DNA of 50,378 nucleotides from a virus (IMGVR_UViG_2562617057_000009:1-50378), one strand, 5' to 3'. Shown: positions 2,172 to 9,432, counted from the first letter of the stretch. Notes: generated from the sequence alone by a model not told the origin. Made by a program: numbers and translations.

Positions 2172-2741
2172 TCATTCCGGATGCTCCTGAGCCACGTTGA
2201 AATCGCCATGATCACGACAAGGCATCACAACAAATTCAGGATTGCCATACATTGAGTTGATGATGGAATCAAACTGAATTCTGACCGCTTGCCCGTCACC
2301 GGAGGGACGTAACTGGACGGGAATAAATTTACGCTCACGACCAAACATCTTCTCTGGATAACTCAGGTAACCCGCCTGGAGCACCGGGTGAGTACAGCGG
2401 TCAAACTTTTTCGGAATGATGCGATCCAAATCCGGAAAACAACCGTCCACCAGTTTAATGCCGGTAATGGACAGTCGTCGCTGAAACTGGTCGCGATGAA
2501 CAGCGATCGGCTCTTTACTAAAAATCAGCTCTGTCGTTTCGGCTTTGGCCGGGACGCCCCCTTCGAACTGGACAATGATGTTTTTCTTCGTCCGGATGCC
2601 GTGAGCCATGCGCAGTGCCACGGAACCATTGGTTGCCTCAATATGTTTCGGCGTGATGTGAAGACCGTTCAGGTAATAACGAACGTCGTTTTTAGCAGCG
2701 CACACCAGAGCGGCGCGAATAAGTTTTGACTGGATGATCAT
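2172..2741 (-). CDS. hypothetical phage early protein
   Basis: 189-aa ORF; stop overlaps the start of the upstream gene (ATGA). Confidence 0.5.
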   Translation of the reverse strand: MIIQSKLIRAALVCAAKNDVRYYLNGLHITPKHIEATNGSVALRMAHGIRTKKNIIVQFEGGVPAKAETTELIFSKEPIAVHRDQFQRRLSITGIKLVDGCFPDLDRIIPKKFDRCTHPVLQAGYLSYPEKMFGRERKFIPVQLRPSGDGQAVRIQFDSIINSMYGNPEFVVMPCRDHGDFNVAQEHPE

Positions 2742-3487
2742 GCTTTATCCTCCCATCCGATCACCTGGAAAAGCCCCATCTTCGGGTGATACCAGCGTGT
2801 GCCGCGTGGTTCAGCCTCTGACATCATTTGGTGGAACGCCGCCATAAATGGCTCAAGCTCGACGATAGCCCTGCGAGACAACAGACCGTCCGGAGTCATG
2901 AATTCGTGGGTGTCTGTAGGAATTTGATATGCGTTCACCAGATTCCGACACTTGGCGTCACTCATTCCACTTTTGGCTACCACCTGGCGGTAACCGACAT
3001 ATCCGGCGCGCATTGTGCCGCGTTTGATGTTCTCCACAGCTTTGGTGACCGTTTCGATCTTCTTTTCAACATGACTCAGGCGCTTTTGCTGGCGAACGGC
3101 ATCGGCGGCCATTGCAGCGATCATCTCCATTTCCGTCAGCGGCGCGTGAGTTCGGAAATAGCTGTTAACCAGTTCGCGCTGAACCTGCCAGGCCAGATCG
3201 TCGGTGAAGGATTTCACCAACATCAAATAACCGGATTCGACCAGTACAATTCCTGCTGCTGCAAATTTTGAGAAAGTACCGTCAGGGAGGTGTCGACGAA
3301 TTTCGTCGGAACCTAATTCGAAGTAGTCTTCCCCTTCAATAAGACGAGACTTGTTTTCGCGGAAATTGCGTCCCGCTGTTCCGTCCGGGCGTTGGTGCAC
3401 TTCATCAATCATCGCCAGCGTCACCACGCGCTGACCGCGATATTCGATTACCGGAAACTGTTTGTTGTTGATGGTTACAGTATTCAT
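2738..3487 (-). CDS. antirepressor-like protein: ORF6N-type N-terminal domain plus a C-terminal domain shared with the gene at 8719-9432
   Basis: Start chosen at MNTVTINNKQFPV with GGAGA upstream; C-terminal ~90 aa nearly identical in protein to the C-terminus of the Rha-domain protein at 8719-9432. Confidence 0.65.
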   Translation of the reverse strand: MNTVTINNKQFPVIEYRGQRVVTLAMIDEVHQRPDGTAGRNFRENKSRLIEGEDYFELGSDEIRRHLPDGTFSKFAAAGIVLVESGYLMLVKSFTDDLAWQVQRELVNSYFRTHAPLTEMEMIAAMAADAVRQQKRLSHVEKKIETVTKAVENIKRGTMRAGYVGYRQVVAKSGMSDAKCRNLVNAYQIPTDTHEFMTPDGLLSRRAIVELEPFMAAFHQMMSEAEPRGTRWYHPKMGLFQVIGWEDKA

Positions 3488-3530
3488 TTTTATCTCCAGA
3501 CAGCCCGGCGTGTAATACCGGGCATATGTA

Positions 3531-4361
3531 TTACTTAACCTGAATAAATGGTGTGTTGGCACCGCTGGTCATGTACTGCGGCAGTGTGCCGTTCCATTTA
3601 TTGATGGCTTCCAGCTCCATAACACCGGGGTTCTGGCGCAGAGCTTCACCGCGTAAACGAATTGCATCGGCTTCGGCCTGGGCTTTTGTGCGAATCGCAT
3701 CAGCCTGTCCGGCAGCTTCTGCACGCAGCATGTTGGCTTCTGCTTCGCGTTGTTTAACTTCCTGCTCGCGTTGCAGTGTTTTCTGGTTTGCCGTGACTTT
3801 GGCGTTAATGCTGTCGATAACGGTTGGTGGGTACTCTGGCTTACCCACATATGAGAGGCTCATTACCTGAATACCGATGGGTGTCATTTCTTCCTGGATG
3901 TCTTTTAGAGCGGCATCCAGTAATTCAGATTTACCGCCGTCAATAAATTTGTCGGTGGTCATTTTGCTGGCCAGCCGATTGAGTGCGTCGGCGATCTTCT
4001 GGCGCAGGTCGGTGTTGGTAATGTCATCCACGCCTTTGCGGTAAGTCTGAAACACCGTGGTAACTTTGGATGGATCAACTTTGTAGGCCACGCCGATGTG
4101 ATAGCCGATGGTTGTGCCGTCACTCATCTGGAAACTGAACGGTTCATCGTAGGTCTTCATTTGCTTGAAGGTCGGGAAAATGTAAACTTCAGTATTCCAG
4201 CCAGTCCAGTAGCGACCAACACCGACCACCTCACCGACACCTTTGTCGTCGCCCAGTTTGTTGACTTTGATACCCACATTACCTGGTTCAACGCGATCGC
4301 AACCTACAAGTCCGAAGACAGCCAGACTGACCGCGAAAACAAGCGCAATTGTTTTTTTCAT
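3531..4361 (-). CDS. SPFH/band-7 (prohibitin-like) lipoprotein
   Basis: Signal peptide with lipobox LVGC, SPFH-like core, Ala/Glu-rich coiled-coil C-terminus. Confidence 0.7.
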   Translation of the reverse strand: MKKTIALVFAVSLAVFGLVGCDRVEPGNVGIKVNKLGDDKGVGEVVGVGRYWTGWNTEVYIFPTFKQMKTYDEPFSFQMSDGTTIGYHIGVAYKVDPSKVTTVFQTYRKGVDDITNTDLRQKIADALNRLASKMTTDKFIDGGKSELLDAALKDIQEEMTPIGIQVMSLSYVGKPEYPPTVIDSINAKVTANQKTLQREQEVKQREAEANMLRAEAAGQADAIRTKAQAEADAIRLRGEALRQNPGVMELEAINKWNGTLPQYMTSGANTPFIQVK

Positions 4362-4546
4362 TTTTCCCTCCCGGGGAAAGAAAGACCCTTATAAATGGCA
4401 TAAATGCAGGGCGGGGTCAGACACGCCAGAGCAAAGCCAGAAATCACTGCTACCGTATCCTTCATTGATATGAGGGCCGGAACGATTAATCCGTAAATAC
4501 ATGCGATAATTGCCAGTGATATAACTATTCTGAAATAAATGTTCAT
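4358..4546 (-). CDS. small two-helix membrane protein, translationally coupled to the SPFH gene
   Basis: 62 aa, two hydrophobic segments; stop overlaps the SPFH start. Confidence 0.5.
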   Translation of the reverse strand: MNIYFRIVISLAIIACIYGLIVPALISMKDTVAVISGFALACLTPPCIYAIYKGLSFPGREK

Positions 4547-4606
4547 GGTCCTCCTGATGTATTCGGCTTGCCTTATTTAATTGCGTCATGGTTAATTTCG
4601 TTTACG

Positions 4607-7840: not shown

Positions 7841-7967
7841 ATCCTGTGGGTTTCTTTACAAGGATAAATCTTTACTTGATTTTAGTGTATTCGATCCTTT
7901 TGCAACTTGCATGTTAATTTAAACTTGATGCATTCTTGATTCATAAAGTTAATATTGGTGCTTTGTT
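7841..7967. promoter_or_regulatory. cI/cro divergent promoter-operator region
   Basis: 127-bp AT-rich intergenic with reiterated cttga/tcaag-containing motifs; individual operators not resolved. Confidence 0.5.
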
Positions 7968-8234
7968 ATGAAAGGAAATGATTACGACAAACTTCGTGCA
8001 TTAATTGCGCAAAATGCCATAGCGCGAAATCTGGGTGTGACACCGCAAGCGGTGAATCAGTGGTTTTCAAAAAGCACAATTCCTGCCCGTTTCGTTTTAC
8101 GCGTATGTGAAGTAGTTGCATGGAAGGTCACGCCGCATGGCTTAAGGCCAGATCTTTATCCTCACCCTGAAGATGGAATTCCTGATTCGTTACGCAAAAA
8201 CTCAAAATCCAAGCTTAGCGCACACAGAGGATGA
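7968..8234 (+). CDS. cro: Cro-like HTH regulator
   Basis: 88-aa HTH protein divergent from cI. Confidence 0.65.
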   Translation: MKGNDYDKLRALIAQNAIARNLGVTPQAVNQWFSKSTIPARFVLRVCEVVAWKVTPHGLRPDLYPHPEDGIPDSLRKNSKSKLSAHRG

Positions 8235-8311
8235 GAAGTGATGGTGGTGATATGAGCGAAAAAATAACTATTAAATACGATGGGGCAACCATTTCGATTG
8301 CCCCAATCACA

Positions 8312-8605
8312 TTAGCGTTCGCTGAGAAGTTGTTGGTAAGCCTTAAAGGATGCGAACTGCATTCTACCTTTGGCATTGAGTCCAATGCCTTCGCTTGTAC
8401 ACCAGGTGATGAACTCGGTTGTATCCGCTTCAACTTTAATAACTCGTTGCCCGCTTCTTTCGACACGCTTAATCAATTTTTCAGCGTCGTGTTTCCACTC
8501 GGTGTAACTGTCGGAGAGCACATCTGCATCAGTAAAAATCTTTTTGAACTCATGATACTGAATAGCATCGCGAAACCAGAATAAACCAACGGCCTGAACT
8601 TTCAT
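8312..8605 (-). CDS. hypothetical protein encoded antisense to the rightward early operon
   Basis: 97-aa ORF with perfect AAGGAGG upstream of its ATG; protein-like composition. Confidence 0.5.
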   Translation of the reverse strand: MKVQAVGLFWFRDAIQYHEFKKIFTDADVLSDSYTEWKHDAEKLIKRVERSGQRVIKVEADTTEFITWCTSEGIGLNAKGRMQFASFKAYQQLLSER

Positions 8606-8718
8606 GTCGAACCTCCTTTGGTTCTTTTGTTTATAGGGATCAAAAGGATAACTGAAGGATGGTTCGGCACCAACAAGTACGAATGTGCGGAATCTTAAAA
8701 GAATTTATCCGTAAGGAG

Positions 8719-9432
8719 ATGGCAGTGAACACCGCAATTTTTAACGACAAAGTATCCATGACCAGCGTTGAAATCGCAGAGTTGGTGGGTAAACGTCATG
8801 ACAATGTGAAACGCACTATTGAAACATTAGCCAAAGGTGGCGTTGTCCGGTCTCCTCAAATTGAGGTTTCCGAAAGAATCAATAACTTAGGTTTTAAAGT
8901 TCAATATGAGCATTACCTGTTTGAAGGAGAGCAAGGTAAGCGCGACAGTATCATTGTCGTCGCACAGCTCTGTCCTGAATTTACTGCTCGCCTGGTAGAT
9001 CGCTGGCGCGAACTGGAAGAACAGATCCGTAAGCCAATGAGCGAAATCGAAATGGTTGCCGCGATGGCTCTTGAAGCAGTTCGTCAGCAAAAACGCCTCG
9101 ACAAGATGGAAGAAAAAGTCAGCCATGTTGCCGAAACAGTTGAGCAAATCAAAAAGGGTACCATTCGTGAGGGCTATGCCGGATATCGCCAGCTGAAAGC
9201 AAAAACCGGTATGTCAGATGCGAAATGTCGCAATCTGGTGAACGCATATCAGATCCCTACCGATACCCATGAATTTATGACGCCGGATGGATTGTTATCT
9301 CGTCGCGCGATTGTTGCTGTGGAACCGTTTATGGCTGCTTTTTATCGGGTTATGGAGGAAGCAGAACCGCGAGGGACTCGCTGGTATCACCCGAAAATGG
9401 GGTTATTTCAGGTTATTGGTTGGCAGAAATAA
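8719..9432 (+). CDS. Rha-family phage regulatory protein / antirepressor
   Basis: N-terminal Rha-like motif (SVEIAELVGKRHDNVKR); AAGGAG before the ATG at 8719; C-terminal domain shared with 2738-3487. Confidence 0.7.
   Translation: MAVNTAIFNDKVSMTSVEIAELVGKRHDNVKRTIETLAKGGVVRSPQIEVSERINNLGFKVQYEHYLFEGEQGKRDSIIVVAQLCPEFTARLVDRWRELEEQIRKPMSEIEMVAAMALEAVRQQKRLDKMEEKVSHVAETVEQIKKGTIREGYAGYRQLKAKTGMSDAKCRNLVNAYQIPTDTHEFMTPDGLLSRRAIVAVEPFMAAFYRVMEEAEPRGTRWYHPKMGLFQVIGWQK

Follow-up and report, generated by a model that had tools for sequence, protein, structure and literature searches.

The 50,378-nucleotide stretch IMGVR_UViG_2562617057_000009:1-50378, referred to below as the window, contains a phiP27-like prophage whose host is E. 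coli. In the early region of this prophage, we found two genes whose proteins join heads (N-terminal domains) of different families to one shared tail (C-terminal region). Judged from their sequences, both genes are modular regulators of the Bro network that exhibit ordinary swapping of heads and tails. Both are already annotated, and beyond the tail family and its coupling to a clamp-like gene, the finding amounts to known mosaicism of the ordinary kind. What appears to be new is a definable tail family for which neither Pfam nor NCBIfam holds a model. The explanation that we favour as a whole, with moderate confidence, is that two Bro-network regulators with a shared tail were acquired separately through mosaic exchange and act on a common target.

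Bro-network genes are among the commonest genes in temperate phages and satellites. They are routinely mislabelled as antirepressors, and the functions of most of their tails are not known. The locus described here represents a natural experiment, with two unrelated heads and one strongly constrained tail in a single prophage, which makes it easier to ask what the tail binds.

Two genes with one conserved tail

The two genes, with lengths in amino acids (aa), are as follows.

2738..3487, minus strand: gene with ORF6N head and shared tail, 249 aa; head 3143–3487, tail 2741–3142 (Pfam ORF6N 2.5e-15, residues 13–93)
8725..9432, plus strand: gene with Rha head and shared tail, 235 aa; head to 9033, tail 9034–9429 (Pfam Phage_pRha 5.4e-10)

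Both heads score above the cut-offs of their Pfam families (ORF6N, 57 bits against 27.8; Phage_pRha, 40.1 bits against 29.9) and thus qualify as Bro-network heads. The N-terminal parts of the two proteins do not align with each other (global score −23). In RefSeq, the ORF6N gene product is WP_001099207.1 (“ORF6N domain-containing protein”) and the Rha gene product is WP_001300738.1 (“Rha family transcriptional regulator”), while the best-fitting PHROG families are phrog_1726 (“anti-repressor”, 4.8e-67) and phrog_63 (“anti-repressor Ant”, 9.8e-49), respectively. The Rha gene probably starts at the GTG at position 8725 rather than at the ATG at 8719, which would give a protein of 237 aa. The GTG is preferred because it is preceded by a Shine-Dalgarno sequence (AAGGAG, 8713–8718), coincides with the RefSeq start, and yields the 235 aa seen in homologues.

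BLASTP aligned the two proteins over one ungapped block of 131 aa (residues 116–246 of the ORF6N protein and 106–236 of the Rha protein), with 100/131 identical residues (76%), 118/131 positive residues and an E value of 1e-78. The Smith-Waterman score was 550, compared with 33.5 ± 4.9 (maximum 54) for 300 shuffles, and the shared sequence is not low-complexity. An earlier reading of the window from its sequence alone (the sequence-only reading) had proposed almost the same C-terminal domain on different heads in two inverted genes, and had named a short low-complexity similarity as the outcome that would refute it. The alignment bears out the proposal: the heads come from different Pfam families, and the genes lie on opposite strands 5.9 kb apart. 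The common C-terminal region likewise stands, although its length had been put at about 90 aa; the measured 131 aa include a helical linker of ~40 aa in which conservation is lower (26/45 identical residues) than in the core (74/86).

The same reading held that the domain is conserved by selection and does not stem from a recent duplication, and it suggested a pairwise comparison of synonymous and non-synonymous change, which agrees with it. In DNA sequence, the tails are identical at 273/393 bases (69.5%), and the 120 differences are distributed 26/14/80 over the three codon positions. Among the differing codons, 58 have synonymous changes only and 31 are non-synonymous. By the Nei-Gojobori method, the proportion of synonymous differences (pS) is 0.835, at or beyond saturation, and that of non-synonymous differences (pN) is 0.158, falling to 0.098 in the globular core (codons 46–131). 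The GC content at third codon positions (GC3) is 0.62 in the ORF6N copy versus 0.46 in the Rha copy, each resembling its neighbouring genes. We take the shared tail to be under purifying selection and not to be the product of a recent duplication, because synonymous sites are saturated, GC3 differs, and closer relatives occur in other phages.

The inverted placement of the copies 5.9 kb apart, together with two blocks that are 95–100% identical in protein sequence, could potentially be explained by a recent duplication within the genome, by a gene-conversion tract, or by inverted repeats serving an inversion of the immunity region. However, pS is ~0.85–0.87 even in these two blocks, the longest exact DNA run is 20 nucleotides (nt), megablast found no match between the two tail DNAs, and the difference in GC3 and the overall DNA identity point the same way. 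Furthermore, the segment is inverted in none of the related genomes examined. We give these readings next to no credence, and the synonymous-site data refute duplication, gene conversion and inversion substrate alike. On the sequence evidence, the inverted arrangement is incidental, and the copies look too diverged to recombine.

The distribution of the two copies agrees with independent origins. Phage phiP27 has the Rha copy (its gene L14) but no ORF6N copy, and each of 24 loci from other species has a single tail copy within ±10 kb. Both window copies have closer relatives in other phages than in the paralogue of their own genome. A survey of 5,426 complete E. coli genomes (at least 80% coverage) detected 323 with the Rha-type gene and 60 with the ORF6N-type gene, and only five of these genomes hold at least 80% of an 8.4-kb query spanning both genes in one place. 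We conclude from these comparisons that each copy came in on a mosaic module of its own, since synonymous divergence is saturated, GC3 differs, phiP27 has the Rha copy only, other loci are single-copy, and few genomes have both. The ORF6N copy would have been brought by a leftward early-operon cassette consisting of a Bro-network gene and a DnaN-domain-like gene, and the Rha copy by a phiP27-type rightward early operon. Positions 2000–10400 are 99.9% identical to an E. coli FDAARGOS_944 prophage integrated beside mlrA/yohO, and 93% identical, in patches, to the Stx2e phage phiP27.

The tail family and the swapping of heads

Neither tail matches any Pfam or NCBIfam model, even at E ≤ 10. The tail lies inside the PHROG “anti-repressor” families phrog_1726 and phrog_63, and a further match is phrog_6610, whose 122-position profile is confined to the tail and is labelled “unknown function”. 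An exhaustive search of 1.84 billion cluster representatives with a hidden Markov model of the tail gave 52 clusters at 50% identity (E ≤ 1e-3). All 24 genome loci with the tail belong to Enterobacterales, namely Escherichia, Shigella, Citrobacter, Trabulsiella, Budvicia, Yersinia, Proteus, Providencia, Photorhabdus, Xenorhabdus, Arsenophonus and relatives. In full-length members, the tail is always C-terminal and is preceded by a head of 100–155 residues. The heads identified among 35 family members are Phage_pRha (13), Bro-N (3), ORF6N (3), KilA-N (2) and AntA (1).

Heads and tails have been exchanged in both directions. One tail occurs with several heads, as above, and one head occurs with several tails: the head of a phi80-type protein matches the Rha head of the window with 75% identity over 116 aa, the similarity ending just after the residues RWRELEE, and is followed by a KilAC/ANT tail (PF03374, 7.7e-33). 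Head and tail identities are also discordant. A Trabulsiella homologue is 66% identical in its head and 94% in its tail, and a homologue from Photorhabdus akhurstii is likewise 66% identical in its head and 47% in its tail. The tail of another Rha-headed protein (P0010) is 85% identical to that of the ORF6N copy and 72% to that of the window Rha copy.

The shared tail is distinct from the known C-terminal domains of such regulators. Neither window tail matched the ANT model PF03374 at E ≤ 10, nor did any of the 35 members at 1e-3. Identity with KilAC/ANT was rejected, as hhalign gave a probability of 1.3% for the tail alignment against a KilAC alignment; a word-indexed search for KilAC homologues yielded mostly fragments. 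Comparisons with ORF6C, ORF11CD3, P22_AR_C and the NCBIfam models gave no matches. In Budvicia aquatica (locus L007, 4743–5483), a Bro-N-like head (tblastn, 4743–5075) and the tail (5091–5483, the 131-aa P0012) are present as separate products, which could represent either a split or a frameshifted gene.

Phage regulators with KilA-N, Bro-N, Rha and ORF6N domains reportedly undergo domain shuffling, in an account attributed to Iyer, Koonin and Aravind from 2002. [quoted passage not shown] The window genes resemble this network in that their heads come from its defining Pfam families, the tail occurs with five head families, and the genes lie in the early or regulatory regions of temperate phages. 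Unlike the network as defined, however, the window tail is not among the ten defining Pfam families given in PMC10111431, and the tail motifs were not found in its supplementary files as far as these were available.

The nearest relatives of the Rha copy illustrate the same modularity. The product of the phi80-type Rha gene reportedly prevents lambdoid phages from growing in IHF-deficient hosts (Mozola and Friedman, 1985, cited through PMC4936722). The phi80-type protein is like the window protein in its head, its size (240 versus 235 aa) and its head-linker-tail layout, but its KilAC/ANT tail has no detectable homology to the shared tail, and its gene lies in the nin region instead of beside cro. 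The phiP27 protein L14 (NP_543066, “anti-repressor Ant”) is an orthologue of the window Rha copy (89% identical; tail 95%) and lies at the corresponding place, ahead of the Bro-N gene L15 and the Ash-Rha gene L16; a literature search found no published function for it. The immunity region of phiP27, however, is not that of the window, and the phage lacks both the ORF6N copy and the clamp-like gene described below. One stretch of the otherwise conserved Rha head, GKRHDNVKRTIETLAKGGVVRSPQIEVSER, differs from phiP27 L14 and is nearly identical to the phi80-type head (window 8725–9033 compared with L109:7876–8184 and L028:1468–1780). This stretch is a mosaic patch over the helix-turn-helix (HTH) of the head and may track DNA-site specificity.

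Predicted tail structure, CI and the antirepressor label

The tail was modelled by AlphaFold from a 36-sequence alignment, with a predicted local distance difference test (pLDDT) score of 87 and a predicted template modelling (pTM) score of 0.62; a single-sequence model of the full ORF6N protein was unusable (pLDDT 37). In tail numbering, the model comprises a long helix (4–40), a strand (48–50), two helices (51–58 and 62–71), a beta hairpin (76–82/88–95) and a further helix (96–109), followed at the C-terminus by three short strands that carry the invariant H119, G123 and F125 of a WYHPKMG-F motif. The long helix is probably a dimerising coiled coil, because 9/12 a/d heptad positions are hydrophobic in both copies. 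The core of the model weakly resembles a small MerR/excisionase-type winged helix and not a dedicated protein-binding domain; if it is a MerR/Xis-type domain, helix 62–71 and the hairpin would be its recognition helix and wing. When compared with winged helices of the MerR, excisionase and small-terminase types (TorI 1z4h, RacA 5i41, SoxR 2zhh and Pukovnik Xis 4j2n), the tail shows 6–19% identity, with no profile-level homology and no significant Foldseek match. Unlike MerR-type domains, it adds the long N-terminal helix and a C-terminal three-stranded element with the invariant H-x3-G-x-F. Foldseek found nothing significant in the PDB, and in BFVD it matched only one protein, which comes from a Ralstonia phage and has a KilA-N domain (E 8e-4). 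When the tail profile was run against PDB sequences, it returned noise only.

Helix 62–71, the hairpin and the C-terminal motif are 95–100% identical between the paralogues, and their residues differ in other genera. Since the predicted recognition helix and wing and the WYHPKMG-F motif have stayed almost identical despite saturated synonymous divergence, both tails have most likely been constrained to a single target specificity, unlike the heads. In the arrangement that we propose, one tail (a helix of ~37 residues, a beta-alpha-alpha-beta-beta-alpha core and a small C-terminal sheet) would be joined to interchangeable heads, both tails would recognise the same target, and the heads would read different DNA sites. 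Our best guess for the target of the tails is a DNA site, with a common protein as the alternative. The proteins would dimerise, and both genes would be expressed early in lytic growth under the control of the CI repressor.

The repressor and its divergent neighbour are the following.

7145..7834, minus strand: CI-type repressor with HTH and Peptidase_S24 domains (Peptidase_S24 4.1e-17, HTH_3 5e-8; RefSeq coordinates)
7968..8234, plus strand: Cro-like small HTH gene, divergent from cI (YdaS_toxin, P22_Cro and HTH_3 matches)

The layout of the early region is lambdoid-style, with a leftward block of minus-strand genes that extends to xis and int and a rightward block that reaches the replication genes. 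Both tail genes lie within these two divergent blocks and not in a separately controlled unit. On the left, 3.7 kb and about ten open reading frames (ORFs) separate the ORF6N gene from cI; on the right, the Rha gene follows the cro-like gene after 0.5 kb, with an opposite-strand ORF in between. The earlier description of the pair as flanking the immunity region is thus a loose one. A promoter-like site (TTGACA-17-TAATAT, 7080–7052, minus strand; 10/12 sigma-70-like), with the ORF6N gene downstream, is flanked by TCAAG-N7-TTGA palindromes at 7030 and 7077, of which there are only three in the whole window. The half-site CTTGAT occurs three times in the cI-cro gap, and the candidate sites span 7007–7092 and 7864–7945. 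These palindromes are suggestive of OL/OR operators. A sigma-70 scan of the 93-nt gap 5′ of the Rha gene found no convincing promoter.

Several points count against the arrangement that we propose. CI control of both genes is deduced from gene order, the promoter-like site and the palindromes, and our literature search found no experimental work on any member of the tail family. Moreover, the presumed fold class also holds the protein binders CbpM, RppC and DafA, and the core has no excess of basic residues (10 K/R versus 10 D/E, by reading the sequence).

The sequence-only reading also proposed a common partner-binding domain in two antirepressor-type proteins. Taken further, both proteins would be antirepressors whose tail binds and inactivates the prophage's own CI or the repressors of co-resident prophages, with the heads acting as sensors. 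This is consistent with the labels of phrog_1726 and phrog_63 and with the RefSeq name of phiP27 L14, although such labels are annotation transfer only. Bro-network proteins such as P1 Ant, and the “anti-repressor-like” AnrP of Gifsy-1, are reported to induce prophages (PMC4825925; PMC3121763). The window proteins share the annotation label with P22 Ant, P1 Ant1/2 (controlled by c4 RNA), Gifsy GfoA/GfhA (LexA) and Gifsy-1 AnrP (IsrK), and membership of the Bro network with P1 Ant and probably AnrP. However, the characterised antirepressors belong to units outside direct repressor control, whereas neither window gene was found to lie in a LexA-controlled or antisense-RNA unit. A scan of the whole window for LexA boxes (CTGT-N8-ACAG) found them only at 28755 and 32186, and none lies within 19 kb of either gene. 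Both genes instead belong to early operons that CI would be expected to silence. CI itself has a Peptidase_S24 domain and should be RecA-cleavable without help, and the core of the tail model resembles DNA-binding winged helices. The repressors also fail to co-vary with the tail: the phiP27 tail is 95% identical, yet the two CI proteins share no significant similarity (E 0.036, over 41 aa of the HTH). Trans-acting antirepressors of broad range can hit several repressors and would escape this test, so the missing co-variation is not fatal.

A P1/Gifsy-type RNA-controlled unit is present further to the right, and it controls Ash-Rha ORFs instead of the tail genes. It consists of three tandem cassettes (10306–12478, plus strand), each with an isrK RNA (62–63 bits) and a C4 antisense RNA (80–85 bits), located by RNA model matches as follows.

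10360–10436 and 10461–10548, plus strand: isrK and C4 RNAs of the first cassette
11016–11092 and 11117–11204, plus strand: isrK and C4 RNAs of the second cassette
11672–11748 and 11773–11860, plus strand: isrK and C4 RNAs of the third cassette

Such a cassette corresponds to the RNA-controlled “antirepressor” unit of the P1/P4/Gifsy-1 type (PMC4825925). The RNAs sit inside the “Phage_ASH” N-terminal part of the Ash-Rha ORFs, downstream of both tail genes, and most of what is read as “Ash” frames may in fact be RNA genes. The unit is triplicated in the window and present in one copy in phiP27 and in E. coli FDAARGOS_944.

We consider it unlikely that either protein is an antirepressor of this kind, and the CI-antirepressor label is without support at this locus. 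Of the earlier proposal of a common partner-binding domain, one tail on two different DNA-binding-type heads is retained; the tail as the CI-binding domain of an immunity-flanking pair is set aside, given the CI of phiP27 and the lack of a LexA box. A better candidate for a protein partner of the tail would be a translationally coupled DnaN-domain-like protein.

The DnaN-domain-like gene and other neighbours

Directly downstream of the ORF6N gene lies the following gene.

2172..2741, minus strand: DnaN-domain-like (“beta clamp domain”) gene, 189 aa; 4-nt overlap between its start and the stop of the ORF6N/tail gene

Its homology to beta clamps is below threshold. The matches to NCBIfam dnaN (TIGR00663; 1.2e-4, 21 bits) and to Pfam DNA_pol3_beta_2 (PF02767, DnaN domain II; 0.007, 17 bits) fall short of the cut-offs of 137 and 27 bits, and although 16/17 PDB profile matches are beta clamps, they have E values of 0.2–1 and centre on a KLxDGRFPD motif. 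Homologues of ~30% identity in Salmonella, Klebsiella and Escherichia phage records are named “DNA polymerase III beta subunit” or mislabelled “RusA-like”.

A clamp-like homologue lies directly downstream of the tail gene in 8/20 genome loci with enough downstream sequence. The pairing extends to Proteus and Providencia, where the tail gene is Rha-headed, and to Photorhabdus, with clamp identities of 30–56%. In a reciprocal test, we detected the clamp-like protein in 80 viral contigs, which are close relatives (60–100% identity), so that the counts do not represent independent events. A tail-bearing ORF lies directly upstream of the clamp-like gene in 71/80, and the same 4-nt overlap is found in 70. 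The heads of these 71 are ORF6N-like (39), Rha-like (12) and Bro-N-like or other (20); the last group has a different helical linker and a tail core only 26–35% identical. In eight of the nine remaining loci, the clamp-like gene is directly preceded by a Bro-network gene of another tail type, and in four of these exceptions (in L067–L071) that tail shows 46% identity with the one on the Bro-N protein encoded at 9485..10309 in the window. A Bro-network gene, with whatever head or tail, thus abuts the clamp-like gene in 79/80 viral loci. In sequence comparisons, the cassette of a Bro-network gene and a DnaN-domain-like gene in the leftward early operon is robustly conserved, and a tight coupling of this sort appears in many enterobacterial prophages.

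This coupling could be read as evidence that the shared tail is a docking module for the DnaN-domain-like protein, recruiting the clamp-like factor or the host replisome to DNA sites read by the heads; the Rha copy would then share the single clamp-like protein from the left operon. Such docking would fit the overlap of the clamp-like gene with the stop of the ORF6N/tail gene, the recurrence of the tail upstream in the viral loci while heads and linker vary, and the pairing in Proteus, Providencia and Photorhabdus. However, other Bro-type tails occupy the same slot in eight of the nine exceptions, so that the linkage concerns Bro-network genes at large and not the shared tail. In addition, phiP27 has the tail with no clamp-like gene at all, 12/20 genome loci with enough downstream sequence likewise lack one, and both the relatedness of the viral loci and the sub-threshold clamp homology reduce the weight of the association. 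Fels-1 has only a degraded clamp-like fragment, and its context is uninformative. We regard docking through the tail as improbable, and hold it similarly doubtful that the tail, or the Bro-network slot that it occupies, is functionally coupled to the 189-aa protein, with the heads delivering a clamp-like factor to different sites. If such coupling were real, the ORF6N and Rha heads would converge on one partner, perhaps as heterodimers held together by the common coiled coil, and early transcription control would be linked to replication or to takeover of the host replisome. The reading that we prefer remains that of two modular regulators whose tails are held to one target, with a DNA site as the best guess.

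A third Bro-network gene of the region follows the Rha gene directly.

9485..10309, plus strand: gene with Bro-N head and another (Roi-like) tail, directly 3′ of the Rha/tail gene (Pfam Bro-N 1.2e-20); named “BRO-N domain-containing protein” in RefSeq

PADLOC found no defence-system match for the ORF6N gene, the Rha gene or their neighbours. The ORF between the cro-like and Rha genes (8312–8605, minus strand, 97 aa) is preceded by a strong AGGAGG and followed by a hairpin with an 11-bp stem (8305–8281). It has no Pfam, NCBIfam or PADLOC match, and in phiP27 its place is taken by another and larger opposite-strand gene, L13. Adjoining the ORF6N gene, a 276-aa ORF (3531–4361, minus strand) encodes an SPFH/HflK-C-like lipoprotein whose HflC/HflK matches are weak, and the product of the ORF at 4997–5215 (minus strand) is named “ParE family toxin-like protein” by RefSeq in an identical E. 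coli prophage.

The tyrosine integrase frame (75–1361, minus strand), which has 429 codons in FDAARGOS_944, is interrupted in the window by an in-frame stop at 492–494 that leaves ORFs of 289 and 136 aa. Given this stop, the window prophage may be unable to excise. Elsewhere in the window, Rfam matches at 30624–30803, 31560–31763 and 17002–17309 correspond to a CssrB small RNA (230 bits), an IS009 RNA (129 bits) and a cluster of four tRNA genes, respectively.

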